Source: an uncultured Candidatus Saccharibacteria bacterium (GTDB lineage: Bacteria; Patescibacteriota; UBA1384; CAYGGE01). Taken from it: a stretch of DNA of 64,000 nt. Each line of letters begins with the position of its first letter. The stretch's first letter is position 1. The notes under the pieces were generated by a model. It ran no database searches. It was not told where the DNA came from and saw only the letters and a list, made by a program, of their open reading frames with translations. Shown piece after piece: positions 20,510 to 59,139 of the stretch. Made by a program: the position numbers and the translations under genes. The DNA is taken from NCBI GenBank assembly GCA_964349485.1, contig CAYGGE010000002.1:5737-69736 (forward strand). The letters are read 5' to 3'.

Positions 20510-21550
20510 TTACCCAAAACTGAGTACAGGGTCACGATCTAACTCCTCGATATTCTTAACATAATCGTTGTGTCTTGTCTGATAATATGCCGCTACTGCG
20601 ATCATCGCGGCATTATCGGTGCACAGTTTTTTTAGATTGGGATAGTGGACAGTCACCCCAGATGGCTTAAGGGCTTTTCTTATGGCTTGTCGAAGAGCAG
20701 TGTTGGCGATGACTCCCCCGCCAAGTAAGACTTGTTTGATCTTGTACTGTTTTATAGCTGGAATTAGCTTAATGAGAATTGCATGGATAGCGACACGTTG
20801 GAAGCTAGCGGCAATATCAACGATTTCTTGTTTGTTTAGTTCGTGCCCGTCGGCCGTCATTTTCTTAATCATATAGAGGACAGAAGTCTTCAGGCCAGAG
20901 AAACTAAAGTTGAGGTCGTTAGAATGTTTCATGGGAATTGGGAAGTCGTACGCATTAGCATCACCCTCTTTTGCTAGACTAGCCAATACCGGTCCACCTG
21001 GATAACCAAGGCCGAGCATTCTGGCAACCTTATCGAAAGCTTCACCCATTGCATCGTCAAGTGTCGCACCGACAATCTCGAAGTCGAAGTCGTCTTTGAT
21101 GAGTACTAATTCAGTGTGGCTACCAGAGAGGAGCAGGGCGAGACTAGGGTGGGTGATGGCGTCGATTGAAGATTTACCTGCTTTTGTTTTGGCAAAGTTA
21201 GCATAGATATGACCAATCATATGATTGACCGCGACTAAGGGTTTGTTAGAGAACGTAGCAAGTTCTTTCGCTTTGCGAACGCCGACTTCTAGGGCGATAG
21301 CCAGACCTGGGCCATAGGTCACCGCAAAGACATCGATCTGTTCGAGTGTAAGGCCTGAGCGTTTAAGTGCCAACTTCATGACTGGGTCGAGTTGCTCGTT
21401 GTGGGCCCGTTGAGCGATACTCGGTACGACACCGCCCCACTGTTTATGGAGTTCGATCTGCGAAGATATCGCGTTTGTCAAAATGACATCGTCACGGCTG
21501 ATCGCGACTGAAGTCTCATCACAACTGGTATCGATGGCTAAAATATGCAT
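20510..21550 (-). CDS. tsaD: tRNA N6-adenosine threonylcarbamoyltransferase TsaD (Kae1/YgjD family)
   Basis: MHILAIDTSCDETSVAI and NHMIGHIYA motifs. Confidence 0.9.
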   Translation of the reverse strand: MHILAIDTSCDETSVAISRDDVILTNAISSQIELHKQWGGVVPSIAQRAHNEQLDPVMKLALKRSGLTLEQIDVFAVTYGPGLAIALEVGVRKAKELATFSNKPLVAVNHMIGHIYANFAKTKAGKSSIDAITHPSLALLLSGSHTELVLIKDDFDFEIVGATLDDAMGEAFDKVARMLGLGYPGGPVLASLAKEGDANAYDFPIPMKHSNDLNFSFSGLKTSVLYMIKKMTADGHELNKQEIVDIAASFQRVAIHAILIKLIPAIKQYKIKQVLLGGGVIANTALRQAIRKALKPSGVTVHYPNLKKLCTDNAAMIAVAAYYQTRHNDYVKNIEELDRDPVLSFG

Positions 21551-21584: not shown

Positions 21585-22682
21585 TTATAGTATAGGTTGG
21601 TCTGAGTAGGTGATCGTTCGTTGATGTTCATTATCGCCGTACTCAAGCTTGACCCAAATTATCTTGGCCTCAGCTGTATAGTTACTCAAAACGTCGGCAA
21701 TTTTGTCGGCCCATTCGATCGCTAATACAGCGTTTGAATCTATCATCTTTGCGAGACCTAAATCAACAAACTCTTTACTGTCAAATAATCGCCAGGTGTC
21801 GATATGTATAAACTGATTAGGAGTATCACCGTAATTGAAATTGTACTCCCTAGATAGAGTGAAGGTCGGCGAAGTGATTGGTTTTGTTACGCCTAGGTCT
21901 TGACCAATACCTTTAGAGAGCTGAGTCTTGCCGGCGCCCATCTCGCCGACTAAGGCAAAGATAAGGGCTCGCTCATTGAGATATTGGCGGTATTGTCCAA
22001 CCAATTGTGCACCGATCTCCTGGGTCTCGGCGGCGCTTTCAGTAGTGACAATGGTTGCCTCTGACAATTTAATATCTCCTTGGCGAAGGATAGTTGGCTG
22101 GTCAAGCGTCGTATCGATTACCGTCGACGGTTCATTTTTTTGGAGAGCTCCGGCGTCGATAATTAGATCGATCAATGACTTTTGATGGGCGGAAATGTTT
22201 TCCAAGATGTCGGAGATTGCATACGGTCGTTTTTTGTATGAGGCGTTGGCTGAACTTGCCGTTATCGGCTTACCATATGCGGCTAAGATCTTACGGATTA
22301 CGCTCGAGTCAGGAATTCGAATTCCTAAAGTAGCGCGTTCAGATTCAACACCTTTGGCCACCTTACCTTTGGATTTCGAGATGATGGTGATTGGCCCCGG
22401 GAGAAAGTTCGTATACAGCCGTTGTGCCTCACTATTAAGTTCGACATACTGACTAGCCATCGCCTGGTCGTTTACGGCGATTGATAGCGGTTTACCCTGC
22501 CGGCGAGCTTTATAGCGCAATAATCTATCTACGGCGGCTTGATTAGTCGCGTCGGCGCCTATACCGTAAACCGTCTCAGTCGGGTAGATAACTAAACCAC
22601 CGGCCGCGAGTACACGGCAGGCAGTATCAATAATCTGTTGGGACTGGGTTGTTTTACAATCAAGGGTAATCATAGTCACCAT
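21585..22682 (-). CDS. Fusion protein. N-terminal domain: L-threonylcarbamoyladenylate synthase TsaC/YrdC. C-terminal domain: TsaE (YjeE P-loop).
   Basis: N-terminal PTETVYGIGADA...SANASYK. C-terminal GEMGAGKTQLSKGI...SPTFTLSREY...HIDTWRL. Confidence 0.7.
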   Translation of the reverse strand: MVTMITLDCKTTQSQQIIDTACRVLAAGGLVIYPTETVYGIGADATNQAAVDRLLRYKARRQGKPLSIAVNDQAMASQYVELNSEAQRLYTNFLPGPITIISKSKGKVAKGVESERATLGIRIPDSSVIRKILAAYGKPITASSANASYKKRPYAISDILENISAHQKSLIDLIIDAGALQKNEPSTVIDTTLDQPTILRQGDIKLSEATIVTTESAAETQEIGAQLVGQYRQYLNERALIFALVGEMGAGKTQLSKGIGQDLGVTKPITSPTFTLSREYNFNYGDTPNQFIHIDTWRLFDSKEFVDLGLAKMIDSNAVLAIEWADKIADVLSNYTAEAKIIWVKLEYGDNEHQRTITYSDQPIL

Positions 22683-26550: not shown

Positions 26551-27850
26551 TAAAACTATCTATGTTTGTGAGAATTGTGGTAACGAAGCATTGCAGTGGG
26601 CTGGTCGCTGTAATTCGTGTGGGGAGTGGAATACTCTACGCGAAGTAAAGGGGTTGGCGAAGACATCTAACGGTCGTGAGTCAACTAGGCTAGGACTGTT
26701 GCCTGTAATTCAGCCGATCCAAGATGTTCAGTCACTCCAGGAAGCTCGACTCCAGACCGGAATGAACGAATTTGACCGGACTCTGGGTGGGGGGATTGTC
26801 GCCGGATCGGTCGTCCTGATCGGTGGTGAACCTGGTATTGGTAAGTCCACCTTACTAATGCAATTAGCTGGCAATATTAAAAATGTGCTCTATGTCTCGG
26901 GCGAGGAATCGGCTAGTCAAATTAAACTTCGTGCTGAGCGTTTGTCGATTCAAGAAGGCGTTGATATATTTACCGAGACTGATGTGACGATTATCTGCGA
27001 TCAGCTGATTGCCCATAAGCCGAATCTAGCTATCCTCGACTCGGTGCAAACTCTTTATGATCCACAGTTTCCCTCGACGCCAGGTAGTATCATCCAAGTC
27101 AGAGAATGCGCGTTACGAGTACAACAAGTTGCTAAAGCGACCGGTATCCCGATTGTGTTGGTTGGCCATGTTACCAAAGACGGTGGCGTTGCCGGACCTC
27201 GTACACTTGAACATCTGGTCGATGTTGTACTATATCTTGAAGGTGAACGACATCGTGGAGCGCGTATCCTACGAACTGTCAAAAACCGATTTGGAGCTAC
27301 CGACGAAATTGGGATCTTTGACATGCAAGAACAGGGTCTTGTCCCGATCGACAATCCATCGAGTTTTCTACTAGCGGAGCGTCAACTCAATAGCTCAGGC
27401 TCTGCGGTTGGCGTTACCCTCGAAGGTACTAGGCCACTGCTGGTTGAGATACAATCACTGACTAACGCCACGGTCTTTGGTTACCCAAAAAGAACAGCCA
27501 GTGGCTTCGATCTGAATCGGCTTAATGTATTAATTGCCGTACTCCAAAAAAGGGCCGGCATAAATCTCTCTAACCAGGATGTCTATGTCAATGTGATCGG
27601 TGGGATCCAATTGCGGGAGCCAGCGGTTGATTTGGCAGTGATTATGAGTCTGGTCTCCGCCCAAAAGAATATACCACTACCGCCTGACTATGCTTTTTTT
27701 GGCGAGGTTGGCTTATCGGGAGAGATTCGATTAGTAAATCAGGCATCAGCCAGAGAAAAGGAAGCCAATCGCTTAGGCTATGGTAAAAAGTTAACTGCCA
27801 AGAACATTAAGCAAGCAATTGACCAAGTATTCACGAAAGTAGGCAAATGA
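26531..27850 (+). CDS. radA: DNA repair protein RadA/Sms
   Basis: CENCGNE...CNSCGEW zinc finger. GGEPGIGKSTLLMQ. Lon-like C-terminal domain. Confidence 0.9.
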   Translation: MMMPTNNKTIYVCENCGNEALQWAGRCNSCGEWNTLREVKGLAKTSNGRESTRLGLLPVIQPIQDVQSLQEARLQTGMNEFDRTLGGGIVAGSVVLIGGEPGIGKSTLLMQLAGNIKNVLYVSGEESASQIKLRAERLSIQEGVDIFTETDVTIICDQLIAHKPNLAILDSVQTLYDPQFPSTPGSIIQVRECALRVQQVAKATGIPIVLVGHVTKDGGVAGPRTLEHLVDVVLYLEGERHRGARILRTVKNRFGATDEIGIFDMQEQGLVPIDNPSSFLLAERQLNSSGSAVGVTLEGTRPLLVEIQSLTNATVFGYPKRTASGFDLNRLNVLIAVLQKRAGINLSNQDVYVNVIGGIQLREPAVDLAVIMSLVSAQKNIPLPPDYAFFGEVGLSGEIRLVNQASAREKEANRLGYGKKLTAKNIKQAIDQVFTKVGK

Positions 27851-34677: not shown

Positions 34678-36942
34678 CTATTGGAGCAATGTAAATTCGT
34701 AGAGCTCTTTATCGACTACAACCCATGCTTTATGGGTTTTGGGGTTGGCGCGGATGAGTCTTATCTTCTTCTGCCATTCCTTAGGTAAGAAGTATTGGTG
34801 AACGAACTGACCGTTCTTGTCGAACTCCATTATACGTGGTGCAACTTTATCATTACCACGATCGGTAAGATAGTAGTTATTCGCGTCTTCAATGGCGAAA
34901 AAATTAAGAGGGTCACTAATCGTATCGTAAGGTTTGGGTAGGTTAGTTAGTTTGAAATCAAGCTGTTTGCCTCGCCCATATTTTGTCACTGCTCCCGTTT
35001 TGTGGAGTACAAAGACCGAACCATCGATGGCCAGGCTGATCCCGTCTCTTAAACTGACCCTGTTAGTTTTCGTATATTCTTCGGCTGTTGCTACAGCACC
35101 AGAAAGAGTATATTTCCAAACTTCGCTCCCTGCTGGGTCTAGGAGATAGACGATACCACCGAAACTACTTAGCCCTGTAGCAATTGGGAACGACCCGGCC
35201 GCTAGTGCTAACTTGGTTAGAGTTCGTCCGACGAGCGAATAGAGCTGACCATCGTACGTTTGGAGCGTTAGTTTGTCGGAGTTGTTGTCGAGATGAATTT
35301 GATTGACGGCTGAACTGACTGGAATGGTAGCGAGGAGAGTTGGTTCGCCACCAGTCAGTAAGATACTCTTCATGTCACCGTCTGGCGTGGAGTAATAGAA
35401 CCTACCTTCGGCGATCAGTCCAGTTTGGATACTGTCGGTCAGTGTAAATAATGGTCCATCGACCGTGACACGAGTAGCGCCGGCCAAGGTGTCGAGCTCA
35501 CGATTTGCCTCTTCAACTAAGATCGCAGCGCTTTTTGTAGCTTCTGGATCGGCCTCAATTTGCTCACTTAGCGCGAGTAGCTCGAGGAGCGATGTGCGGG
35601 CCAGATCGTTATTGCCATAGATTTTAGCCTGCTTAGCCTGTTTGGCTAGATCATTCATCTGGGAGACCATGGCTTTGGCCACGGCTGGATTGATAGTTTC
35701 CTTTTTCTGACGAAACTCAATACTAGTGCCAATCGCTACGAGCAAGATGAGAGCGGTCACAATATACCAGGTGCGTGGTGAGCGTTTAATCGCGGCCCCT
35801 AATTGGCCAATTGTACCCATGATGATATTTATAATAGTTTGAATCAATAATGTGAAATTGTTAGCACGATGTTTTTTTGAGGTGTAATGATTGACGACCG
35901 GACCACCTTCTCGTTTACTTGATAACGGTGGTAGATTGAGAGCTAGTCGAGAGGGGATAATCTGTTTGAATGATAGACCAAACTTGTTAGCACTAGGCTC
36001 TGCCTTGTTTTTAAGCATAGCCAAGACTTGAGAGCCGTTCGAAGCTGCGCTTGCGGTCAGATCGACAGTTTTTGGCTTAATCTGTTGGGTATAAATCTTA
36101 TTAACTAACTGTCCTGCCTTTCTGGCCCCGCGATCGAGATGCTTGCCTAGCCATGTCGCAAAATGAATAATAGGAGTGCTGATTTGTTTGGCCTGATATC
36201 GAACAATACTCCACGTAGAATCAATCTGTTGGTCTAGATAAATTGTATCGGTACGAAGGATGAGCGAAGAATTTTCTGCACCTTGGGTTGTTTCAAAATG
36301 GATGATGATCGCGTTGGCTTTTCGAATCTTCATCTGCTTCAATCGTCTTGCAATAGCTTTTCCAGCCTCTTCAAGGGGGAGTTTAAGTAATGGCAGAAGG
36401 TCTTCAGTAGCTAACGCCTGATATGTTCCTGGACTACCGAGGAAGATGGTATCATCTGCTGAGAGTTCGCCGGTAATCATGTTACCAAAGATTTGACCTG
36501 GTTTTTGTTCATTTTGTGTGTCATCGGTTACACGATTTAGCTTACCGTCACGTAGATAGTAGGCTTCAGCCACACCCGTAAAGGCGAGGTGAATTTCATC
36601 GCCGACGACTAAGGCTATCAATGCATGGATAGTGTGGGAAAAGCTTTTCTCATTGTCGCGTTCGAGCTGGTCAAGTAGCCGGTTAGCCTTACTTAATGCA
36701 TATTCAAAGCATTCGAGAGGTGTATGCTTCTCTTGTCGATAGTACTCCCGACTGATCATGTTAATCAGGGAAGAGCCAACCGAGGCGACGCTATTCCACG
36801 GTGAGTCAATTTGGAGAACAAAGTAGAGTTTACCGAGATGATGATCGGCGACATCATTAGCCGATACGACTTTTGAGGTCAAAAAGACTTCAGGCAATTT
36901 ACCCGAATTGGTCAGCCGTATATGAGAAGGAACAAACGACAT
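34678..36942 (-). CDS. Large hypothetical membrane protein. N-terminal degenerate PP2C-like domain, a central TM and a C-terminal beta-propeller-like domain.
   Basis: HALIALVVGDEIHLAFTGVAEAYYLRDGKLNRVTDD resembles PP2C, but the DGxGG metal ligands are absent. TM WYIVTALILLVAIGT. Confidence 0.45.
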   Translation of the reverse strand: MSFVPSHIRLTNSGKLPEVFLTSKVVSANDVADHHLGKLYFVLQIDSPWNSVASVGSSLINMISREYYRQEKHTPLECFEYALSKANRLLDQLERDNEKSFSHTIHALIALVVGDEIHLAFTGVAEAYYLRDGKLNRVTDDTQNEQKPGQIFGNMITGELSADDTIFLGSPGTYQALATEDLLPLLKLPLEEAGKAIARRLKQMKIRKANAIIIHFETTQGAENSSLILRTDTIYLDQQIDSTWSIVRYQAKQISTPIIHFATWLGKHLDRGARKAGQLVNKIYTQQIKPKTVDLTASAASNGSQVLAMLKNKAEPSANKFGLSFKQIIPSRLALNLPPLSSKREGGPVVNHYTSKKHRANNFTLLIQTIINIIMGTIGQLGAAIKRSPRTWYIVTALILLVAIGTSIEFRQKKETINPAVAKAMVSQMNDLAKQAKQAKIYGNNDLARTSLLELLALSEQIEADPEATKSAAILVEEANRELDTLAGATRVTVDGPLFTLTDSIQTGLIAEGRFYYSTPDGDMKSILLTGGEPTLLATIPVSSAVNQIHLDNNSDKLTLQTYDGQLYSLVGRTLTKLALAAGSFPIATGLSSFGGIVYLLDPAGSEVWKYTLSGAVATAEEYTKTNRVSLRDGISLAIDGSVFVLHKTGAVTKYGRGKQLDFKLTNLPKPYDTISDPLNFFAIEDANNYYLTDRGNDKVAPRIMEFDKNGQFVHQYFLPKEWQKKIRLIRANPKTHKAWVVVDKELYEFTLLQ

Positions 36943-39033: not shown

Positions 39034-39109
39034 TGGTCAGGGTGGCGGGGCTCGAACCCGCGACCTCCGGACCCCCAGCCCGACGCGCTACCAACTGCGC
39101 TACACCCTG
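39034..39109 (-). tRNA. tRNA-Pro (anticodon GGG), CCA encoded
   Basis: Reverse complement CAGGGTG...CACCCTG-A-CCA. Anticodon loop CTGGGGG. Confidence 0.8.
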
Positions 39110-43127: not shown

Positions 43128-43407
43128 GGACAAAGGAGCCTTGCGTCCGGTGGCTGTAGCTACCGGACGAACTCGTTATATATGCAATATATTAGATTCT
43201 AAAGATAGACATATTTCAAAGAAGGTATCGGGGTAATGTCTGTACTCGTATTTTTGGCAGGCCATCGCCGAAATTGTTAGAACTCTTTGTACTAAGAACA
43301 CAGATCTCATAATTCCTGAGTTTGCGATAACTTAAAAGGCGACCCATACGAGGGGCCGCCCTGCCAGCTAACTGCTGGTGCAATATTTGATTATGTTGCG
43401 CCTACGA

Positions 43408-44220
43408 CTAGGCTGCGACGCTCAGTCCCTTCACGCGAGCCGGATCGAGCTTGCTGCCACCTTTGGGGAAGATGGTGGCGTAGCCGAGCATCAGCATGTT
43501 GAAGTGGATGCGGCCGTCACTGATGTTCTGCGGGACGGTGTGTTCGGCATTGACGGTCAGGCGGTTGATATGCCAGAGCTCCCACTCGCCGTTCTCGGGG
43601 TTAATACGAGCCGTCCACTCGCCTTCGATGATGACCTGGCCGTTCTGGATCTCCATGCTTTTGATCGGTCCGCGGTAGGCCACGCCGTCTTCGACAGACT
43701 CCAGATCGCCACCGATCAGATCGGTTCTGGCGAGCACCTGGTCCCAGCGAAGGTGAGCTGGGCCGCGACCCGTAGCGTTGGAGAGCATCAGGATCTCTTC
43801 GGGCGGATCCCAGCGATCCCGCACGCTCATCGTATCCTGAGTTTCCAGATACCGATAGGGGACGTAGACGGTCTTGCCGTGGGGCGGTGCCCAGAGGGTC
43901 ACTTCGGCCTGCTCGTTGTCGGTCGGATGACAGCCGCTGATGACGCCGTAGACCTCCTTGGGCTCGCCGTAGTAGATCCAACTGATCCAGACGATGGTAG
44001 CGGTGGTGCGCTTGGCCTCTTCAGCCTCCCGCTCCGTCCGTTCCCATCCTTCTTTCCAGGTCTGGAACTCGGCTTCCGAAACACGAAGGTGCTCGGGCCG
44101 TTCGTCCTTGATCATCTGGAAGCCCGCGAAGCGGCCTTCCCGACAGGCGGACTTGGCGAGATATTCCCGATCCCGCTTCTGTTCTTTTGCCCACTGGTTC
44201 TTCATCCATCGCTCGTTCAT
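43408..44220 (-). CDS. Hypothetical protein encoded in a ~62% GC segment (likely horizontally acquired)
   Basis: Strong RBS GGAGGAG before ATG. Trp/Glu-rich sequence. The +strand 285-aa ORF over the same span looks like an antisense shadow. A minus-strand hairpin terminator lies at about 43340-43375. Confidence 0.45.
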   Translation of the reverse strand: MNERWMKNQWAKEQKRDREYLAKSACREGRFAGFQMIKDERPEHLRVSEAEFQTWKEGWERTEREAEEAKRTTATIVWISWIYYGEPKEVYGVISGCHPTDNEQAEVTLWAPPHGKTVYVPYRYLETQDTMSVRDRWDPPEEILMLSNATGRGPAHLRWDQVLARTDLIGGDLESVEDGVAYRGPIKSMEIQNGQVIIEGEWTARINPENGEWELWHINRLTVNAEHTVPQNISDGRIHFNMLMLGYATIFPKGGSKLDPARVKGLSVAA

Positions 44221-44427
44221 CGGTCTCCTCCATAGGCCGTCATGGTGACGGCGGTAGCGAACGACTAAAGTATCGAATTAAAGAGCGCCAGAGGATAGAG
44301 GTAGTAATACTGCACCTCGATCGTGACGCAAAAGTATAGCATAAATCATCAGGTTTGTCAACCTGTTAAGAACTAAAAAACAGCGGTTCAGCTGTATCAG
44401 TTGAAATTCATATTTTTATAGAAGTGA

Positions 44428-44967
44428 TTAGCTTAGTAAGCGTTTAATTTCATCATGCTTCTCTGGGTGTTTTTCTAACCAAAGATGAACGCCTCGCTCT
44501 ACGTTTTCAGGGGTTGGAACATAACTAATAACATTCAGATTAGCGGGCTGGTTGATCGGTTCTGGATCGTACTTTCGTTTCAGCTTTAGGATAATTTCAA
44601 TAGCTCTAAGTCTAACAGTCCAGTCTATATCACTAAGATACTCATAGGTCTTAGCGCCATCTTTTTCAATGGCTGTGGCATTGATAGTTTTTGTTGCCAA
44701 TGTAGCGGCCTTTAGTAAGTCAGCTACCCACTTATCAGATAATCCTGATTCTTCTAGCTGATCTGAAAAATCAAGTTTTCTCAAGTTCTCGTGGCCTATC
44801 TGTGCTGCGCTTTCTCGACTAGTCACATCATAAGCTCTAGACGCTGCTTCTGTTGCATTCCTGGTCTCAATGTACTCTTTGACGAAGACATGTTCTTTGA
44901 TCGTTTTTGGAGGACGTGTAGACATGCTATTGTCGGGTCGCCACAGTGTGCTAGAGATCCACGACAT
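44428..44967 (-). CDS. Phage terminase small subunit-like protein
   Basis: HVFVKEYIETRNATEAASRAYDV...IGHENLRK resembles the Terminase_2/P27-type HTH region. Confidence 0.5.
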   Translation of the reverse strand: MSWISSTLWRPDNSMSTRPPKTIKEHVFVKEYIETRNATEAASRAYDVTSRESAAQIGHENLRKLDFSDQLEESGLSDKWVADLLKAATLATKTINATAIEKDGAKTYEYLSDIDWTVRLRAIEIILKLKRKYDPEPINQPANLNVISYVPTPENVERGVHLWLEKHPEKHDEIKRLLS

Positions 44968-45874
44968 TGTTAATAATGAGTGGGGTTATCGTACCAGGAA
45001 GCTGAAGAAAACGGGTGGTAAACCACTCCATCCCTCCATGCTCTACGACATGTTTAAGAACCCGCTTTACTATGGTCAAAACATCCGTCCTGATGGAACG
45101 GTCCACCAATGTGCCCATAAGACCATGGTGACAGAAGAGGAGTTTTGGCGAGCTCAAATCTTACTTGGCCGTAAAGGACGCACCCGTTCTAAAACCCACA
45201 CATTCGCCTACACGGGGTTAATTCAATGTGGGGAGTGTGGATGTGCCGTGACAGCCGAAGAGAAGCATAAGATCAATTTAAACGGTGGTATGCGGCACTA
45301 TATTTACTACCACTGCACGAAAAAGAAGCTCGATCACAAATGTACTCAACCATCATTTGAGCAAAAGGCTCTCGAGCGCCAAGTTGATGCCCAATTGGAG
45401 AGAATGGCGATCTCAGAGAAGTTCAAGGACTGGGCAATTAAATATTTAAAAGAAACCAGCGAAGATCAGATGAGTCAGTACAATCAAATTACCAAAACGC
45501 AGCAAAGCGCTTATGCTGATGTCGAGAAGAAGCTTGGCAAATTGCTTGATCTAAAACTGAACGAGCTCATAACCGACGAAGAGTACAAGACTAGTAAAGA
45601 ACAATTACTAGCCGAACAAGTCGGTATCGAAGAGCAACTAAAGGCAAATAAGTACAGCTCACATAATTGGATCGAACTAGCCGAAAAAACCTTTGATTTT
45701 GCCTGTCACGCCCGTTACTGGTTCCAAAATGGTACCCTTGAAGATAAAAAAATAATCCTTCAAACCATCGGAGGATCGAACCTCTCGCTGAAGGACAAAC
45801 AACTACGATTTGAACCAGATAATATCTTCACTGTGCTGGCAAATCGGGACAAAAATTCGGATTGGCAGGGGTAG
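44870..45874 (+). pseudogene. Large serine recombinase remnant. Recombinase domain, Zn ribbon and coiled coil are present. The N-terminal resolvase catalytic domain is missing.
   Basis: ...GYRTRKLKKTGGKPL..., CGECGC...YYHC zinc ribbon, C-terminal coiled coil. The stop overlaps the tRNA-Trp 3' end. Confidence 0.6.
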
Positions 45875-45936
45875 AAGGAATCGAACCCTCGTATCAGGTT
45901 TTGGAGACCTGCGTTCTACCATTGAACTATACCCCT
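45863..45936 (-). tRNA. tRNA-Trp (anticodon CCA), CCA encoded
   Basis: Reverse complement AGGGGTA...TACCCCT-G-CCA. Anticodon loop CTCCAAA. Confidence 0.75.
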
Positions 45937-45938
45937 GT

Positions 45939-46001
45939 GCTAGCTATCTGGTAGCTAGTTGTCTGGTTTTTATACCTAACTAGACAACTAGATTACTAGA
46001 C
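45939..46001 (+). repeat. Copy of the CTAG-containing intergenic motif with inverted repeat CTAGTTGTC...GACAACTAG
   Basis: Read directly from the sequence. It lies between tRNA-Trp and rpmG. Confidence 0.4.
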
Positions 46002-46003
46002 AT

Positions 46004-46171
46004 CTATTTAACTTCTTTATGTGCAGTGGTTTTCATGCATTGTGGGCAGTATTTTTTGAGTTGCATGCGATCCGTACCAGAGTTGATCTTATTCTTACTG
46101 GTTCGATAATTAGCCCGACCACATTCTGGGCAGGATAACGAAAACTCGAAGCGGTTACCTTTTTTAGCCAT
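46004..46171 (-). CDS. rpmG: Ribosomal protein bL33
   Basis: MAKKGNRFEFSLSCPECGRANYRTSKNKIN...KKYCPQCMKTTAHKEVK. Not in the ORF track because it is under 60 aa. Confidence 0.8.
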   Translation of the reverse strand: MAKKGNRFEFSLSCPECGRANYRTSKNKINSGTDRMQLKKYCPQCMKTTAHKEVK

Positions 46172-46257
46172 ATGAACTCCTAGAGATAATAACGCATATT
46201 ACTTAATAGATTATGTGGGGCTATGGTACTTCTCGTCGCATAGCTCCTCGAAGCAAG

Positions 46258-46333
46258 TGGAGCCACCTGTCGGATTTGAACCGACGACCCGCTGTTTACA
46301 AAACAGCCGCTCTGGCCACTGAGCTAAGGTGGC
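46258..46333 (-). tRNA. tRNA-Thr (anticodon TGT), CCA encoded
   Basis: Reverse complement GCCACCT...AGGTGGC-T-CCA. Anticodon loop TTTGTAA. Confidence 0.75.
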
Positions 46334-46334
46334 A

Positions 46335-46409
<75 letters not shown>

Positions 46410-46477
46410 ATTTTTGCAAATGAAGCAAGAAAGTATCAAACATCTCACAGGGGTAGCTTCTCACCAATTCGCCGATA

Positions 46478-46563
46478 TGGTGCCGGGTGAAGGATTCGAA
46501 CCTCCGTAGCCCGAAGGCGTCAGATTTACAGTCTGATGTAATTGGCCACTCTACCAACCCGGC
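46478..46563 (-). tRNA. tRNA-Tyr (anticodon GTA), class II with long variable arm, CCA encoded
   Basis: Anticodon stem-loop TCAGA-CTGTAAA-TCTGA. Variable arm CGCCTTCGGGCTACG. Confidence 0.75.
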
Positions 46564-47258: not shown

Positions 47259-47789
47259 TTAACCAGAGCCGTTGATACACTTAGACTCAAAACGATCGTT
47301 AAGGAAGTAGAGCATGGCAGCTGACGCCGTGGCAACATTGAGCGAATGACCGGCTCCGAGCATCGGCAGGTGTACAGTCTTATCGACACGAACTAGGATA
47401 TCTTGCCCAATTCCATCGGTCTCATGTCAGACAATCAGCGCAAGCGGAAAGTTGTAATCAACTAAACGGTAGTCGACGCTATGCATACTTTTTTCAAGGG
47501 CCACAATTTGATAATCTCTTGCTCTCAGCTCACTAATTGCCAATTCAGTCGTGTCGAAATGTTTGAAATCGACGCTATCAATCCCTGCCAAGCCAGTTTT
47601 TCGAAGTTCTTTGTCGGCCCGCTTACTAACCCAATCCGGCCTCTGGTCATGCGTAATTTTTGGATAACCGCTTAGACCACAAAGGTAAATGGCCTCAAGA
47701 TTCACTCCATCTGCAATGCGAAACAATGATCCGACATTGTAGAGCGAACGGATATTATCGGCAATTATCACGATCGGTAGACGAGTCAT
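47259..47789 (-). pseudogene. trmL: SpoU/TrmL-family tRNA 2'-O-methyltransferase carrying an in-frame TGA (47427-47429) at the conserved Gly of the LIVGxE motif
   Basis: N-terminal part VIIADNIRSLYNVGSLFRIADGV. After the TGA the same frame continues: HETDGIGQDILVRVDKTVHLPMLGAGHSLNVATASAAMLYFL (SpoU motifs 2 and 3). Confidence 0.7.
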
Positions 47790-47877: not shown

Positions 47878-47985
47878 ATGGATGATCACAGCGCAACACC
47901 TGCTGACGACATGAACGACGAAGAAGCTGGCAAAAAGGAAGATGCTGGCATGATGACTAGCGAGCCAAGCACCGACGAAGAATAG
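47878..47985 (+). CDS. Mini-ORF encoding a 35-aa acidic peptide
   Basis: RBS GGAGGT 5 nt before ATG. Immediately followed by a strong terminator. Confidence 0.3.
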   Translation: MDDHSATPADDMNDEEAGKKEDAGMMTSEPSTDEE

Positions 47986-49634: not shown

Positions 49635-50315
49635 ATGAACGCGATTATGTTGAAAGATGTACAGAAGGTCTATCGCACAGGAACACTACTCGTTCCAGTT
49701 CTCTTAGGGATCGATTTAGAGGTCAAAAAAGGGGAGATGGCGGCGATCATGGGGCCATCGGGGAGCGGAAAGTCGACCCTTATGAATATCATTGGTCTTC
49801 TTGATCGACCAAGTCAGGGCGAACTCATTCTCGACGACAAGCCGATCGATCTTTCCATGCCTGATAGCCGATTGGCGAAGATGCGCAGTCAGAGTATCGG
49901 CTTTGTTTTTCAATCATTTAACCTTTTACCGAGGATATCAGCGCTCGCGAACGTCCTGCTGCCTGCCAGTTATGCCAAGGGAAACCGTGCGGATCAGGAG
50001 AAACGGGCGGTGAGTTTGCTTCGCCAAGTTGGTTTAGCCGAACGAATGTTGCACAAGCCGACCGAATTATCTGGTGGAGAAAAGCAACGGGTGGCCATCG
50101 CCCGGGCGCTCATGAATAATCCAGAAATTGTTTTAGCCGACGAGCCTACAGGAAATCTGGACTCAAAAAGTGGGGCCGAGATCATGGCTATCTTGAAAGA
50201 CCTAAATAAAAAAGGCAAGACGATTATTGTCATCACCCACGATCCAAACATTGCCAGACAGTGTGATCGGATCATCCAAATTGAAGACGGTAAAGTGGCA
50301 GGGGGTGTCCGATGA
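49635..50315 (+). CDS. ABC transporter ATP-binding protein (MacB/LolD family)
   Basis: GPSGSGKST, LSGGEKQRVAIARAL and ADEPTGNLD motifs. Confidence 0.9.
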   Translation: MNAIMLKDVQKVYRTGTLLVPVLLGIDLEVKKGEMAAIMGPSGSGKSTLMNIIGLLDRPSQGELILDDKPIDLSMPDSRLAKMRSQSIGFVFQSFNLLPRISALANVLLPASYAKGNRADQEKRAVSLLRQVGLAERMLHKPTELSGGEKQRVAIARALMNNPEIVLADEPTGNLDSKSGAEIMAILKDLNKKGKTIIVITHDPNIARQCDRIIQIEDGKVAGGVR

Positions 50316-51526: not shown

Positions 51527-51595
51527 CTAAAATCTGATATAGAAGATTTATTACATCTTATGTTCTAAGTGTTTGGGGGCTTTGAAGAGGAAATC

Positions 51596-52549
51596 ATGGA
51601 TTATGTTCGTCCATTTTCAAAACTCGCTAGCCGTGATGTAACTATTGCGGGCGGTAAGGGTGCTTCACTTGGTGAAATGACTGGCCGAGGCATCTCTGTC
51701 CCTCCAGGCTTTGTGATATTAACCACGGCTTTCGAGCAATTTATTGATTCTGCTGAACTCCACAATGAGATTGAATCTCAATTGGCGAAAGTCAACCATC
51801 ATGAGATGGAGACTATCGAGCGAGCTTCCGAGCATATACGAAATCTCATCATGACGGCCGTCATGCCTGAAGCTATTAAGAAAACTATTCTTCATGATTA
51901 CCACGAGCTTGACGCGCCATTCGTGGCCGTTCGCTCATCAGCTACAGCGGAGGATGGAGCTAATGCCTCATGGGCGGGGGAGCTTGATAGTTTTCTTAAC
52001 ACGACGAAGGAGACTTTGTTAGAAAATGTTATGCGTTGCTGGGCTTCACTCTTTACCCCTCGGGCTATTTTTTACCGGATTGAAAAGGGCTTTCAGTCGA
52101 GCAAAGTTTCTGTGGCCGTCGTTGTGCAACAAATGGTCGAGTCTGAGGTTTCTGGTATCGCCTTTTCGGTCCATCCCGTGACCGAAGACCAAAACCAGCT
52201 TATTATTGAAGCTGCCTGGGGCTTAGGCGAGGCAATAGTATCAGGATCGATTACACCCGATAATTATGTTATTGATAAGCGGGACTGGTCGATCATCGAT
52301 TGCTATAAAGCGGATCAAGAGCGAGAGATCGTGCGAAAACCGGCCGGCGGCAATGAATGGGTCGTGGTCTCAGAAACTAAACGATCGATCCAGAAACTTT
52401 CAGATGCTAAGTTGATTGAATTAGCGATGCTTGTTGTTAAAATTGAGCAACATTACGGCTTCCCCTGCGATATTGAATGGGCGATGGTCAAAGAGAGGCT
52501 TTACGTCCTTCAGTGTCGTCCAATTACTACTCTTAAAGAGCCAAAATGA
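51596..52549 (+). CDS. PEP/pyruvate-binding (PPDK_N-type ATP-grasp) domain protein
   Basis: VTIAGGKGASLGEMTGRGISVPPGFVI... The start is taken at MDYV with RBS GAGGAAATC. Confidence 0.65.
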   Translation: MDYVRPFSKLASRDVTIAGGKGASLGEMTGRGISVPPGFVILTTAFEQFIDSAELHNEIESQLAKVNHHEMETIERASEHIRNLIMTAVMPEAIKKTILHDYHELDAPFVAVRSSATAEDGANASWAGELDSFLNTTKETLLENVMRCWASLFTPRAIFYRIEKGFQSSKVSVAVVVQQMVESEVSGIAFSVHPVTEDQNQLIIEAAWGLGEAIVSGSITPDNYVIDKRDWSIIDCYKADQEREIVRKPAGGNEWVVVSETKRSIQKLSDAKLIELAMLVVKIEQHYGFPCDIEWAMVKERLYVLQCRPITTLKEPK

Positions 52550-52559
52550 TATATAAAAT

Positions 52560-53987
52560 ATGAATATTGATGTCTTCAAAAATGCTTTAGCCGAAGATCG
52601 CTTCAAGCAGAAGGGAAGCGTGACGCCTCTCTACTTATTGGGGGCGGGTATGAGTGGATTTAACATCAAGCCGATCCTTGGATATGGATATACCGATTTT
52701 CTTTATATCTATAAGGAAAGTTACGGTGAAATGCATTACTTAATACGCGACTTTAATGATATGTGGCAGATAATCAAAGCGAAACTGGCTCACAATCCTC
52801 ATTACTTAGCTCAGGTTCGTCGTGATTATCAAGATCGATTAGTCGAGCATGAGGATCTATACCACATGATAGATAAGACCGATCTAAGTGCTTTGAACGA
52901 TACTGAATTGCTGAAAGTATTACGACAAACAAACACCTTATATATTAATAATGCTTGTGGTACCGCTCATATTTGTGAGGCTGTCAGCCACAATGCTGAG
53001 GCGGAGCTCATTGCACACCTCCCAAAAAGCCTTACCGATAATGACAATTTTGCCGAATTATTCGCGACTCTGACAGCGCCAACCGAACAATCATTTTTGA
53101 GTCGTGAGGAAGATGAGCTGGCCCGCATTGCCACACTAAATGAATCCGAGCTAGCCTCGGCCCTTGAGAAACATCAGAAACGCTACCACTGGGTCAATAA
53201 TAGTTATGCTGGTGATAAGTACCTGTCAATAGATGATTTTAGAGGTAGATTAGGTCATGCCGAAGCACTATCTCTTAGGAAGGATATGAATGCAGAAAAA
53301 AACGCGCTGTTTTTACGTTATCAGCTCAATGAATCAGCGCGAATGACGATTCATTTGATCGATTTTACTGCGAGCTGGCAAGATGAACGGAAAGGCAATA
53401 TTCTTAAAACGATTCATTATCTTGATCGACTTTTGCTGGAACTGGCTCGCCGTACAAAAATTGACATTCGTTATTTACGCTATCTTTTCCCAAGCGAGCT
53501 TGAAAAAGCACGTGTATTGGCCGATATTGAAGGGAAGCATAGCCAAATAAGAGTCAGATACGAAGGTGTTGCGATCTATACAGATGAAAAGCGATTAATC
53601 ACTGCGACTAGGGAAGATTACTCTCATATCGTCAATTTGATTAAAGGCCTTGCTCCTGATGCTGACGGAGTAGTCAGGGGTTTAGTCGCCCGAAAAGGTA
53701 TGATTAGTGGTAGGGTAGCTATCGTTCACGATGTCACTGAACTAGACAAAGTTAAAAATGGCGACATTATCGTTGCCTCTATGACCCGACCGGAGTATAT
53801 GCCAGCCTTACGAAAAGCGGCGGCCATTGTGACTGATGAAGGTGGAATTACCTGTCATGCGGCGATTGTTGCAAGAGAGTTAGGGGTACCATGTATTATC
53901 GGTACTAAGCATGCCACCACTGCTTTGAAAGACGATGATTTTGTAGTGGTCGATGCGAACAAAGGTGTCGTCTCAATACTTTATTGA
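52560..53987 (+). CDS. Protein with a C-terminal PEP-utilising-enzyme mobile (swivel His) domain. Likely the partner of the preceding ORF.
   Basis: C-terminal GMISGRVAIV...TDEGGITCHAAIVARELGVPCIIG. Confidence 0.65.
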   Translation: MNIDVFKNALAEDRFKQKGSVTPLYLLGAGMSGFNIKPILGYGYTDFLYIYKESYGEMHYLIRDFNDMWQIIKAKLAHNPHYLAQVRRDYQDRLVEHEDLYHMIDKTDLSALNDTELLKVLRQTNTLYINNACGTAHICEAVSHNAEAELIAHLPKSLTDNDNFAELFATLTAPTEQSFLSREEDELARIATLNESELASALEKHQKRYHWVNNSYAGDKYLSIDDFRGRLGHAEALSLRKDMNAEKNALFLRYQLNESARMTIHLIDFTASWQDERKGNILKTIHYLDRLLLELARRTKIDIRYLRYLFPSELEKARVLADIEGKHSQIRVRYEGVAIYTDEKRLITATREDYSHIVNLIKGLAPDADGVVRGLVARKGMISGRVAIVHDVTELDKVKNGDIIVASMTRPEYMPALRKAAAIVTDEGGITCHAAIVARELGVPCIIGTKHATTALKDDDFVVVDANKGVVSILY

Positions 53988-54130: not shown

Positions 54131-57100
54131 GTGAAGCTTCGTTTTTCTGGATATGCTCACTATTTCGTTGCAGCCTGTTTTGTGGTGGGCTTAGTATTGA
54201 GCCAAGGATCAAATCCAACTCGAGCCTACGCCGCTCCTCCATGTAATGGTGCGGCTGGTTTGCGTTATACTGAGATTGCGACCGATAATGCCCACGATCA
54301 GCAAGATACCACCTTGTACAAAAATCTACCTAATGGTCGTAATCCAGGTGCTGATCCCTTTCTTGCAGTGACTGCTTCAGGTGGCCAACAGTCCAGAGCG
54401 GTGATTGGGTTTGACTTGTCAGCGTTACCGGCCGATATTATCGTTCACTACGCACAGCTAGTACTTGGGAGTCCCTTGGGAAGCTCACGAGTTTTCTTTT
54501 CTGGCAGCCGAGGGGTCAGCGCTTATCGATTAACTCAACCTAATTGGTCAGAGATTAAGGCGAACTGGAATCGTTACAATACATTTCTGTTTGGTAATCT
54601 GGCTTGGAACAGTGCAGGTGGGGACTTCGACTCAAGTGATCGACGTGCGATTAATGGGGTCGAGTATGCCTGTTACCCTGAGGTCATCGAGAAGGATGTC
54701 GCGACCGTCACTGACTGGGTCGCTAGTACACTAAACGGTACTAAGCAGCTTGACTTACTGTTAAAACAACCAGGAGTGACTGGTGTCTATCAGTTTAAGA
54801 GTTCCGAGGCTAGCGGGTCACAAGGCTACGGTGATCGGCCGGCTCTTGGTGTGGTTTACTCACATATTATTTCTGGCTACGTTTTTAACGATAGCAATGC
54901 CAATGGTGTCCGGGAAAATGGCGAAGTTGGTGTCAGTGATATCCCTATTCAACTAAAAGTTAGTAATACAAGTGCGGTTGCAGGGGCGACTGCTAGCGAA
55001 ATGGGGGACCCTGGTCACTACCGTTTTTTTAAAGAACTGACTGGTTCAACAGCTAATGAATATCTTGACGGTACAAAGCAATACAAGGTTGAAGCACTCA
55101 TAAGCGGTAGGCAGCGGACTGACAGTCCGTGGGTACCAACTACCGATTCGCCTAATACAACTCCCTTCGCTAACCCTCGCCGTGACTTGGGAGTCGCCTA
55201 CTCACCTATTCAATTTTGTGTAAAAGATGCCACTACAGGTGCTCCGATTGCTGGAGCCGATGTGACAGTTCCCTGGACGATTATCCGCGGCGGCAGTTCA
55301 GGGCAAGATGGGCATCTCATTACTGATTCTGAAGGTAAAACTGATCTCAGTAAGATCGATTATACACTAGTGCCAGTTGGCTATACCGGTTTTGCTAGAG
55401 TGAAAGTAAACGGATATCAGTTGGGTGCCATGACCTGGTCGAGAATACTCGGTGACTCAGCTCCTAAATGTCTTCCACTTAAGCCATTGCCAAAGTTTTG
55501 TGTTGTTGGGCAAACTGATTCAGCCGATGCTGTGCCGATTGTTGGAGCTCATGTTGAACCAAACCCACCGTCAAACGATATGATTCGAACCGATCTTTCC
55601 TCTCCTGATAATCGTGGCTACTTGATTACTGGCAATGATGGTCGGACAAACCCGACATTTCTCGAACCTGACCGTATGTCAGCCAATAGCACGGCGAGAG
55701 CCAAAATTACGGCCAATGGATTTGTAACTAAGGAAGAGCAATGGACATTCAATGGTGATGCTTTGCAACCGGCCTGTTTTGTATTGACAAGATCAGATTC
55801 GGCTCCACTACCGACCGTCCAATTTAAAATTAACGACAGCGTAACTGGATCTGGAGTGGCTGGGGCAAGGATCAGCGGTAATTACATCCTCGGTAATCCA
55901 CCCAATCCTGACACACCAAAGCTAGTCACGGGTAGCGATGGAAAGACTGATACGAGCCATGTGAACATTCCATTTCTTCAATCGGTGGGCAAAGGGGGGA
56001 GCATGGGTGCTACCATCACTCACCCAGCATATATCGATAAATCTACAACCTGGATTTACGATGCTATCTTAGGCCAATTGGTGCCAATTACGTTTGTTCC
56101 AGCTAAATTGCAGTTTTGTGCCCGGGATATCCAAGCTATTACAACAAAAATTGCGGGTGTCAAAATTGAACTACCGACTGCAGGGGTCATACGCTCTAAT
56201 CCTCCGAATCCTGACGCCCCAAACCTAATTACGAAAGCAGATGGTTGCACCGATTCTACGTATCTTGATTACAATACACTCAATAATTTGGTGAGTCAGA
56301 ATCAGAACTTAACCGGAACTAAAACGGGCTATGAATCCAAGACAATAGTTTGGCAATATCTAAAACAAGCTAACCAAGTTGTCAATATCGATTTAACTCG
56401 ATTCACTCCACCGTCGGCTGACTTGTCGATTACGAAGACTTTTACCGATGGTTCAAGAGTTAAGACTTTGATGCAGGGCGAGACTGGTACCTATCGTTTG
56501 ATCGCTAAAAATACCAGTACGACAGTGGTGGCGACAGATGTATTGATTCGAGATATCCAGTCTGACGATCACCCCACGACTGATGCTCACCGCGTTGCCT
56601 GGTTGCCAAACACTGCCGAAAGTACAAGTAATCCACATCAACTTGATTGGACGCGAACCGATCTCCAGCCTGAGCAGACAGTCACACATGAACCTGAGTT
56701 TATAGTTCGCTGTAATGCCCCACTGACTAGTCCGACAAGCCCATTACGTAACTTAGCCCTGGTCACCGCCACGACCACCGATCCGAGTCCAGCCAACAAC
56801 ACCGATAACGATCTCAGACTGTTTATTGTTCCTGGTGATGCCCGCCTATCACTAGCTGTGACGTCGACACCATCGGTTGTTCAGTCAGGCAATTCTTTCG
56901 TGCTCAGCTCACAGTTGACCAATAATAGTCTCACCACGGACGCTCGACATGTGACATTGTCAACCATTTTGCCAAGCCAACTGAGACCGCAAGCTGGTTC
57001 GACAACCGGCGGAGGAATTATTGCTGGACAGAAAATTAGTTGGGTCATCGATCGATTGGCGAAAGGTACTACCTCTACCTATTCGGTGTCGGCCACTGTT

Positions 57101-58447
57101 AATCAAAATGTCTCGGCTCAGATCGTCAATCTCAATGTCTCTGCTGTTTCACTGGCCGCCGACCCAGCCGGTAGTTGTGGGACGGCCTCGGCAGTCAGTT
57201 CGATTCGAATCAATGGCCCTCTCTCGACCATCAGTAAAAAAACTTCGACAGCCGACGTTGAAAAAGGTGAGGAGTTTATCTACTACGTTCGCCTGAATAA
57301 CCAAGGCAACAGTGATTTGTCGGCGACGGCCACCTTAACTGATCAGCTTGATCCTCGCCTAGAGTTTGTTCGACAAGATAGTTGTAAGGTCATCGACGTC
57401 ACCGCTGAAGATGTCGCGCTTGGCTCATTGTGTGGTGCCGATCAATCGCCAAATCCAACTGTCTCTGGCCAAACATTGAGTTGGAGCGTGAGCCGGGTGA
57501 CTGCCAACACGGCGATAGTATATCCAGTTGTGGTTAAGGTTCGTAGTACAGCTACAGCAATCAGCTGTCCTGACCTGATCAACAACGACTTAATCATAGA
57601 TCAGGGTGGTGTGACAGCTAGAGTTAGTTCAGGGGTAAATTTCTACGCGGCCCAATGTCTTGAGGGTAATCTCTACGCCAGAAATGCCAATGCACGCGGT
57701 GGGGTAAACGAAGGAATAAAGATTACGGGTAGCGACGTGATTATCGCCCCGCAATCAGTTCTCGCCTCAACTCAGAGCATAGTCTGTACCTCTCCAAAAT
57801 GCGCCAATGTCCCTTGGAAGATCGCCAATTATGAGGAAGCCACGTCGGTAGGGTTGAACTTTACTGACGTCAAGAAGCGGATGGAGCGCAATAGTTTACG
57901 GGTTTCATCAGGTCAAACCACCTTGAAGTCCAATAATTTGAGTGGCGGCTTCAACTTTTACACGGGGACGAACGATGATAGCTATCGGGCAAAGGCCCAA
58001 TTCCCTGAAGGACGGGTATGGTACACCGGCGGTGACCTGACGATCGACACGGGCGTTACAGGACGAGACTTTGTCTTTACCGGCAAAGGGACAATCATTG
58101 TCGGTGGCAATCTATACGTCACTGGTCAAGGAAAACTCAAATATAAGAGCGAATCGTTTCTTAGTCCAGGCAATTCAGTATCTGACGCGGTTGGATTCAT
58201 ATTGGCTAATGGCAATGTGTCTGTTGGTGCGGATGTCCGTCAAATCGTTGGTGCATACTATGCGCCTAATGGCAATATTAACTTCGACGGACCAGGGACG
58301 GGCCAGCTAAGACCTGCCAATGGTATCTTTATTGGGAGTTCGATCAATGTCGATCGCAATAAAGTAGTCTTTCGCTACAATAATCGGCTGAACAGTTCTG
58401 CTGGTGCGCCACCTGGCTTCTCGTTCGCCAGTTCGCCTGGTAAGTAA
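54131..58447 (+). CDS. Giant (1438 aa) secreted repeat protein, DUF11-like conserved repeat domains. Putative adhesin or pilus-associated surface protein.
   Basis: GTG start with RBS GGAGGGG. Signal peptide. Repeated about 70-aa modules (..NPPNPD.P.L.T..DG.TD...). DUF11-like LSITKTF.. repeats. Confidence 0.75.
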   Translation: MKLRFSGYAHYFVAACFVVGLVLSQGSNPTRAYAAPPCNGAAGLRYTEIATDNAHDQQDTTLYKNLPNGRNPGADPFLAVTASGGQQSRAVIGFDLSALPADIIVHYAQLVLGSPLGSSRVFFSGSRGVSAYRLTQPNWSEIKANWNRYNTFLFGNLAWNSAGGDFDSSDRRAINGVEYACYPEVIEKDVATVTDWVASTLNGTKQLDLLLKQPGVTGVYQFKSSEASGSQGYGDRPALGVVYSHIISGYVFNDSNANGVRENGEVGVSDIPIQLKVSNTSAVAGATASEMGDPGHYRFFKELTGSTANEYLDGTKQYKVEALISGRQRTDSPWVPTTDSPNTTPFANPRRDLGVAYSPIQFCVKDATTGAPIAGADVTVPWTIIRGGSSGQDGHLITDSEGKTDLSKIDYTLVPVGYTGFARVKVNGYQLGAMTWSRILGDSAPKCLPLKPLPKFCVVGQTDSADAVPIVGAHVEPNPPSNDMIRTDLSSPDNRGYLITGNDGRTNPTFLEPDRMSANSTARAKITANGFVTKEEQWTFNGDALQPACFVLTRSDSAPLPTVQFKINDSVTGSGVAGARISGNYILGNPPNPDTPKLVTGSDGKTDTSHVNIPFLQSVGKGGSMGATITHPAYIDKSTTWIYDAILGQLVPITFVPAKLQFCARDIQAITTKIAGVKIELPTAGVIRSNPPNPDAPNLITKADGCTDSTYLDYNTLNNLVSQNQNLTGTKTGYESKTIVWQYLKQANQVVNIDLTRFTPPSADLSITKTFTDGSRVKTLMQGETGTYRLIAKNTSTTVVATDVLIRDIQSDDHPTTDAHRVAWLPNTAESTSNPHQLDWTRTDLQPEQTVTHEPEFIVRCNAPLTSPTSPLRNLALVTATTTDPSPANNTDNDLRLFIVPGDARLSLAVTSTPSVVQSGNSFVLSSQLTNNSLTTDARHVTLSTILPSQLRPQAGSTTGGGIIAGQKISWVIDRLAKGTTSTYSVSATVNQNVSAQIVNLNVSAVSLAADPAGSCGTASAVSSIRINGPLSTISKKTSTADVEKGEEFIYYVRLNNQGNSDLSATATLTDQLDPRLEFVRQDSCKVIDVTAEDVALGSLCGADQSPNPTVSGQTLSWSVSRVTANTAIVYPVVVKVRSTATAISCPDLINNDLIIDQGGVTARVSSGVNFYAAQCLEGNLYARNANARGGVNEGIKITGSDVIIAPQSVLASTQSIVCTSPKCANVPWKIANYEEATSVGLNFTDVKKRMERNSLRVSSGQTTLKSNNLSGGFNFYTGTNDDSYRAKAQFPEGRVWYTGGDLTIDTGVTGRDFVFTGKGTIIVGGNLYVTGQGKLKYKSESFLSPGNSVSDAVGFILANGNVSVGADVRQIVGAYYAPNGNINFDGPGTGQLRPANGIFIGSSINVDRNKVVFRYNNRLNSSAGAPPGFSFASSPGK

Positions 58448-58458
58448 TCTAACTGTCT

Positions 58459-59139
58459 ATGAAGGGAATTGTCATGGATAATCCAATACCGGCCGGGCCG
58501 TCCGATGCTGTCTTCCCTCCACGGGAGGCAAGTCAGCAAGCAAGAAGCATTGCACCAATTACCGCCATTACTCGACCGTACGATGTTATCTTTGCAGTAT
58601 TGGCTGCCCTACTAGTCTTACTTGGTATCTTTATTCTCTATTCCGGTACTGTTTCAACCAATGCCCGGATTAGACGGGCTGAGAGTTCAATTGCTGAGGT
58701 AACAGCGATTATTAATCGAGAGCCCCTAGCTGGTGTAGGTCGTCAAGCCGATCAGTTGGTAGCAGTAGTTGACGGCTACGATAAGGTGATCACCGCACAG
58801 CATGATTTCACACGGTTGCTTGATGATATTGCTGTTCGTGTTCCATCAGAAGTGAAAATGCTATCCATGTCGGCTGATTCAAAAGGTCAGTTCCGATCAA
58901 CTTTACGCGCCAAAAGTTTTATCGCCGCCGGGAAAGCGATTCTCGGCTTACGCCAGGCCAAACATTTAAAAACCGTGACACTTGAGACTATCAGTTTCGA
59001 CCCAAAAACGAGCGCTGATATAGACTTTTCAATTCTAGCGACAGTTGAACTTTCAATGTTGCAAGGTACGGAAGGTACAACATTTGATCAAACATTAAAA
59101 CCGAACCTTTTTGCACCTGATAATATTAAAAGTCAGTGA
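58459..59139 (+). CDS. PilN-like type IV pilus assembly protein (single TM)
   Basis: TM YDVIFAVLAALLVLLGIFIL. Its position in the T4P locus. Confidence 0.45.
   Translation: MKGIVMDNPIPAGPSDAVFPPREASQQARSIAPITAITRPYDVIFAVLAALLVLLGIFILYSGTVSTNARIRRAESSIAEVTAIINREPLAGVGRQADQLVAVVDGYDKVITAQHDFTRLLDDIAVRVPSEVKMLSMSADSKGQFRSTLRAKSFIAAGKAILGLRQAKHLKTVTLETISFDPKTSADIDFSILATVELSMLQGTEGTTFDQTLKPNLFAPDNIKSQ

Follow-up and report, generated by a model that had tools for sequence, protein, structure and literature searches.

A SpoU-family RNA methyltransferase gene in the 64-kb stretch of DNA analyzed here (the window) carries a TGA codon within its reading frame, and the question is whether this codon is decoded, was introduced by an error, or ends translation. 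The original prediction offered fresh pseudogenization, a sequencing error and site-specific readthrough as alternatives and named the gene trmL.

Reading frame and conservation of the interrupted codon

The SpoU-family frame lies on the minus strand from 47789 to 47259 and has 176 codons, counting the internal TGA. As predicted, the TGA is located at 47427 to 47429 (codon 121, minus strand; the plus strand reads tca), and the translation of 47828 to 47259 (minus strand) runs ...DYNFPLALIV*HETDGIGQDILVRVDKTVHLPMLGAGHSLNVATASAAMLYFLNDRFESKCINGSG*. The start was assigned to the ATG at 47789 (MTRLP...; MTRLPIVIIADN...), in agreement with the starts of homologues and with the publicly called 120-aa product P0001, so that the interval from 47259 to 47789 covers the SpoU gene exactly. 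After the TGA, the same frame runs for 55 codons to the TAA at 47259 to 47261, and the claim that it carries on through all downstream motifs was confirmed, with every invariant residue present. The frame is composed of the following parts.

47259 to 47789, minus strand: whole frame of the SpoU-family (SPOUT class) RNA 2'-O-methyltransferase, recognized by translation, PF00588 and gene order; 176 codons and the terminal TAA
47430 to 47789, minus strand: N-terminal 120 codons, comprising the region of motif 1 and the central sheet as far as strand LALIV; corresponds to P0001 (120 aa) and is the part translated under the standard code
47427 to 47429, minus strand: in-frame TGA, codon 121, followed by C (UGA-C), in place of the invariant motif 2 Gly (hhhG-H-E-x-x-G)
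47262 to 47426, minus strand: 55 codons 3' of the TGA that encode the remainder of motif 2 (HETDG), then motif 3 (LPMLGAGHSLNVATA) and a C-terminal helix; would not be translated with the TGA acting as a stop
47259 to 47261, minus strand: original stop TAA; the ends of homologues fall within a few residues of it

P0001 matched the N-terminal part exactly, on contigs from NCBI, ENA and Logan. No in-frame start codon was present between the TGA and M143, and a functional C-terminal fragment therefore cannot be made.

The position of the TGA at the conserved Gly of the family was likewise borne out. The corresponding column, the Gly of motif 2, was occupied by Gly in all 27 aligned homologues (39 to 64% identity). 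Comparison with orthologous genes in related genomes, the check that had been proposed, showed GGN at codon 121: GGC or GGT in all six orthologous loci, which were retrieved through exact-protein look-up, and, among the matches listed, GGC in 25, GGA in 22, GGG in 14 and GGT in 13 of 74 further, more distant loci from the genome scan (relatives of at most 44% identity). TGA occurred at this codon in none of these 80 loci, the distant ones being those among the matches listed. The degenerate pattern A-h-h-h-TGA-H-E-T-[DE]-G had a single match in the JGI metagenomes, by chance, on a contig of 65% GC without SpoU homology. Given that no TGA was found in the loci compared and that the motif scan gave only this chance match, the TGA is an isolated case and not a trait that the family conserves. 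The stop is aligned with an invariant residue in a recognizable gene and is not a chance pattern.

The nearest homologues (55 to 66% identity, 170 to 178 aa) were all full length and located in a conserved gene order. The window shares with the orthologous loci L082 and L087 the succession of ABC/MacB, holB, TPR, a small ORF, SpoU, a membrane protein of ~175 aa and rpmG. Between the TPR and SpoU genes of the window, on the opposite strand, there is a tiny, very acidic 35-aa ORF (47878 to 47985, plus strand; MDDHSATPADDMNDEEAGKKEDAG...), and a 37-aa ORF is called at its position in loci L082 to L084. The rpmG gene (46004 to 46171) is part of a minus-strand cluster at 45863 to 46563 together with tRNA-Tyr, tRNA-Thr(ggt), tRNA-Thr(tgt) and tRNA-Trp, and the 3' CCA of the tRNA-Trp gene (45863 to 45936, minus strand) is encoded.

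The nearest named SpoU homologues, among the matches listed, came from Patescibacteria, Saccharibacteria and Peregrinibacteria with 40 to 44% identity. In a database of 5.8 billion clusters, there was no protein of 66 to 100% identity, so that intact alleles of this species are unsampled; a species-specific pattern of 34 bases, left as N at the mutated site, did not find one in the JGI metagenomes either. Sampling of the lineage is poor: GlyRS matches reach 81% identity at best, and about 57% for the nearest named sequences, from Armatimonadota and Chloroflexota.

Enzyme class and predicted effect of the truncation

With Gly set at codon 121, the conceptual product scored 84.8 bits against Pfam PF00588 SpoU_methylase (gathering cut-off 29.7 bits) over profile positions 2 to 142 of 142. 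All three SpoU motifs were found in frame, namely, motif 1 (N..G...R) as N18, G20 and R24, motif 2 (hhhGxExxG) as LIV-[TGA]-HETDG, and motif 3 (IPM.G..SLN) as LPMLGAGHSLNV, the sole deviation being the stop at the motif 2 Gly. The frame, which is uninterrupted in an active enzyme of the SpoU/TrmH class, is thus broken here by the TGA at codon 121, and the recorded product has 120 aa.

TrmH (SpoU) is the tRNA Gm18 2'-O-methyltransferase, and TrmL (YibK) is the tRNA Cm34/Um34 2'-O-methyltransferase. The name trmL found no support. The two TrmL equivalog models scored far under their cut-offs (TIGR00185, 39.1 bits versus 190.6; NF007683, 19.1 versus 282), and TrmL ranked lower than TrmH by both sequence and fold. 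The TrmH model NF008295 was the best NCBIfam match with 74.7 bits, also below its equivalog cut-off of 227 and restricted to residues 61 to 161, and the RlmB model of NCBIfam reached 47.7 bits versus a cut-off of 160. Among solved structures, the best match by sequence was TrmH of Aquifex aeolicus (1zjr, E = 4.8e-16, residues 6 to 170), compared to E values of only about 3e-4 for TrmL-type PDB chains. By sequence, the protein therefore appears closer to TrmH than to TrmL, with its TrmH membership not established.

The likeness to TrmH (1zjr; 1v2x from Thermus thermophilus; 7edc from E. coli) extends to the top fold matches and to motifs 2 and 3, which align residue for residue, LVVGNELQGV and IPMYGMAQSLNV with LALIV*HETDGI and LPMLGAGHSLNV of the window. 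The 74.7-bit match covers only the C-terminal two thirds, and, in contrast to TrmH, the window protein has its own insertion of ~25 residues after strand 2 (GYPKITHDQRPDWVSKRADKELRKTGL), is devoid of the TrmH terminal extensions, and is encoded by an interrupted gene. With TrmL it shares the minimal single-domain SPOUT architecture, a similar size (about 155 to 175 aa) and the same three motifs, but TrmL appeared among the fold matches only at rank 24 and lower.

The structure was modelled on the orthologue P0002, which is 65% identical to the window protein, using a 46-sequence alignment. The model (pLDDT 96.6, pTM 0.92) shows an alpha/beta SPOUT fold and matched the PDB entries 2ha8, 1zjr, 5l0z, 1v2x and 1gz0 with a probability of 1.00 and TM scores of 0.73 to 0.78; the best fold matches were the methyltransferase domain of TARBP1 (2ha8), TrmH (1zjr, 1v2x and 7edc), RlmB (1gz0) and AviRb. 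The Gly equivalent to codon 121 is G123 of P0002, directly after the strand formed by residues 118 to 122. According to this model, the 120-aa product is missing the motif 2 loop, a helix, a strand, the motif 3 loop and the long C-terminal helix, and the segment after the TGA is predicted to form the knot region and C-terminal helix in P0002. In solved SpoU enzymes, motif 2, motif 3 and the C-terminal helix make up the knot, the AdoMet site and the dimer interface. Since the elements of all three would be lost, the 120-aa product should be inactive, which the model strongly suggests.

Genetic code and usage of TGA in the window

With table 11, 57 of the 64 kb fell within 51 ORFs that were 150 aa or longer. 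The stop codons of 47 curated ORFs were 20 TAA, 13 TAG and 14 TGA, including the TGA of the SpoU gene. Three of the 13 other genes ending in TGA do so in ATGA stop/start overlaps (15941 to 15944, 27847 to 27850, and 50312 to 50315), and glyQS (5388 to 6803), which had been put forward as an example of a true TGA stop, encodes 471 aa, compared to 460 to 491 aa in close homologues. Because TGA ends these 13 genes and glyQS has the length of its homologues, the standard bacterial code is in use and a genome-wide UGA=Gly code (code 25) is excluded, in agreement with the original prediction. An alternative code across the window was also rejected on ORF density; dropping TGA from the stops only inflated overlapping ORFs, and table 11 coverage was already dense.

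The code-25 genomes of Gracilibacteria and Absconditabacteria/SR1 resemble this locus in having UGA where Gly is required. They differ in that their genes contain many UGA codons, which tRNA-Gly(UCA) decodes and which do not serve as stops, whereas the window has one in-frame case in about 47 genes. A tRNA with the anticodon UCA was absent among the seven tRNAs of the window and two in the 4.6-kb upstream flank, together about 69 kb of the genome.

The SpoU gene was the only one in the window with a substantial homologous in-frame extension past a TGA. Extensions of the other genes were mostly short; one longer extension, after 58459 to 59139, corresponds to the neighboring PilO-like gene, which starts at an ATG of its own. 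Pfam searches recovered an ordinary, intact housekeeping set without any split gene, including the dcw cluster, tsaD, recJ, radA, tyrS, argS and type IV pilus genes. A scan for other interrupted genes by same-frame ORF pairs was too noisy to be used, and the pairs mraZ/rsmH and murC/murB and a pilus pair are neighboring but distinct genes.

Two tandem murB-like genes (FAD_binding_4 and MurB_C; 18468 to 19532 and 19532 to 20506) close the dcw cluster, and the first of them directly follows the murC stop in the murC frame. An uncommon fusion of Sua5/TsaC with TsaE, for t6A synthesis, adjoins tsaD (21585 to 22682 and 20510 to 21550, both on the minus strand). Two ORFs in different frames encode a PEP-synthase/PPDK-like enzyme, PPDK_N at 51569 to 52549 (326 aa, ending in TGA) and PEP-utilizers at 52560 to 53987 (475 aa). 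A stand-alone PPDK_N gene, of 314 aa, is present in the orthologous locus L082, too, so the split is probably natural and not due to a frameshift.

Origin of the stop codon

The TGA is probably a real and evolutionarily very recent nonsense mutation, which would make the gene a fresh pseudogene or null allele of a dispensable SpoU/TrmH-class RNA 2'-O-methyltransferase; of the three alternatives offered originally, fresh pseudogenization was the best fit. One base change would suffice, most likely GGA to TGA, i.e., G to T on the coding strand and C to A at plus-strand position 47429. The proposed GGA to TGA change is plausible in that GGA is common, accounting for 18% of the Gly codons in the window and for 4 of 12 in the SpoU gene. 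Its starting point is the less firm part, since the nearest orthologues use GGC or GGT, and an ancestral GGA is inferred and not observed. Under the standard code, translation would end after residue 120, leaving an inactive product with the N-terminal half of the SPOUT domain and without motif 2, motif 3 and the C-terminal helix. Such a loss could be tolerated if the enzyme class is individually dispensable. In E. coli, trmH, trmL, trmJ and rlmB are individually dispensable in culture, and by analogy the same may apply to the organism of the window.

All invariant residues of the family were kept, before as well as after the stop. Identity to 21 orthologues averaged 0.60 upstream and 0.62 downstream of the TGA, and the ratio of 1.04 lies within the downstream/upstream ratios of intact orthologues (0.84 to 1.08), so that the untranslated tail is without detectable drift and the event would be recent on the scale of these divergences; the same picture is equally expected from an error or from functional readthrough. 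The locus resembles ordinary bacterial nonsense pseudogenes in its one premature stop, its intact orthologues in the same gene order and its dispensable function. No difference from them was detected, this case being very young and without secondary lesions, and as a pseudogene it is an ordinary one of a kind already known.

The TGA could also be real but leaky, with unprogrammed near-cognate readthrough, mostly by tRNA-Trp, yielding a little full-length protein from an allele that is weakened and not null. The intact downstream frame and the stop context UGA-C would fit; this context, according to Poole, Brown and Tate in 1995, is reportedly the weakest for termination in E. coli. An influence of the fourth base on termination is documented (PMC5373646). 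However, TGA-C ends three ordinary genes in the window, which indicates that the context terminates well enough here. Readthrough would insert Trp where all homologues examined have Gly, in the loop opening the SAM-binding knot, and its product would probably be inactive. A tRNA-Trp with a 4-bp anticodon stem was recently shown to read UGA in bacteria (PMC13092985), but the tRNA-Trp(CCA) at 45863 to 45936 (minus strand) has a canonical 5-bp stem (CAGGU/ACCUG), so this way of reading UGA does not apply to that copy. The 106 nt around and after the UGA folded no better than shuffled sequences (z = +0.83), which argues against any SECIS-like or stimulatory hairpin. Leaky readthrough is therefore considered unlikely.

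A sequencing, consensus or assembly error, with GGA in the organism and an intact gene, was judged a little less likely still. A single-base difference with a perfectly kept downstream frame does look like an error, and low coverage can leave consensus errors in metagenome-assembled contigs. On the other hand, the TGA was present in three separately built assemblies that were 100% identical in DNA, namely, the window, which presumably belongs to the 150-kb NCBI contig, a MEGAHIT contig of ENA ERZ27247828 (L001) and a Logan contig of run ERR3094296 (L088). An assembler-specific error is unlikely on account of this identity from three different pipelines, which weakens the assembly-error alternative of the original prediction. 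Five indexed contigs carried the 120-aa product, and the same number with the same size distribution carried the identical neighboring TPR gene; among the readable contigs, none combined identical neighbor genes with an intact SpoU gene. The same genotype was also found in ERZ27247830; across ERZ27247828, ERZ27247830 and the ERR3094296 assembly (loci L001, L088, and L091 to L093), the DNA was 100% identical to the window for as much as 16.8 kb. The assemblies sharing the TGA probably come from one study or population, perhaps with reads in common, and so are not independent evolutionary observations. Elsewhere, the window was free of frameshifted or split housekeeping genes, which also speaks against an error.

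Programmed, site-specific recoding of this one UGA into a functional enzyme, by Gly insertion through a tRNA(UCA), selenocysteine or a frameshift, is very improbable: the coincidence that UGA means Gly in code-25 lineages, with Patescibacteria among the named homologues, and the intact downstream frame are all that favor it, against which stand the lack of a tRNA(UCA) among the tRNAs surveyed, TGA as the normal stop of 13 neighboring genes, the unstructured RNA after the UGA, and the absence of TGA from the relative loci with a single chance match metagenome-wide. Selenocysteine insertion goes with a SECIS element just 3' of the UGA and a catalytic Cys/Sec site, and the site here is an invariant Gly, not a Cys. 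A prfB-like frameshift is not the route either, because homology stays in frame 0 and the shifted frames close after 11 codons (+1) and 2 codons (-1); prfB itself is not in the 64-kb window. Site-specific readthrough thus gained no positive support from the tRNAs, the RNA fold, the tRNA-Trp stem or the metagenome motif scan. It is similarly hard to credit that an organism with UGA as a stop elsewhere decodes this one UGA on purpose, whether as Gly through a dedicated suppressor tRNA or through readthrough favored by the context. Were it true, it would represent a transitional state toward the UGA=Gly code of some Patescibacteria, or serve a very low dosage of the methyltransferase.

If the nonsense mutation is real, the strain has just lost one RNA 2'-O-methylation and provides a small case of gene loss still under way in a bacterium that is uncultured and poorly sampled. 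The appropriate annotation is a pseudogene flag or "SpoU family RNA methyltransferase, internal stop", and the locus should neither be named trmL nor be read as evidence of an alternative code; of the scenarios considered, the unlikely one of recoding is alone in bearing on the start of UGA reassignment.

Several other regions of the window attracted attention. A 754-aa ORF at 34678 to 36942 (minus strand) had zero Pfam matches, and a probable surface protein of 1438 aa (54131 to 58447, plus strand), upstream of the PilO-like, PilB and PilT genes, contained only DUF11 and SdrD_B-like repeats. The segment 39110 to 45936, between tRNA-Pro(ggg) (39034 to 39109, minus strand) and tRNA-Trp(cca) (45863 to 45936, minus strand), is gene-poor with few Pfam matches and looks like a decayed mobile element; by arithmetic, the end of the 75-kb ENA contig of the same strain is expected near 39.4 kb. 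A large serine recombinase ORF in this segment (44870 to 45874, plus strand) has the Zn_ribbon_recom domain only, without the catalytic resolvase domain, which indicates that genes do decay in this genome. A terminase-small-subunit-like ORF (44428 to 44967, minus strand) overlaps the 5' part of the recombinase ORF, whose 3' end overlaps the tRNA-Trp gene by 12 nt, and long ORFs are found on both strands at 43378 to 44235.
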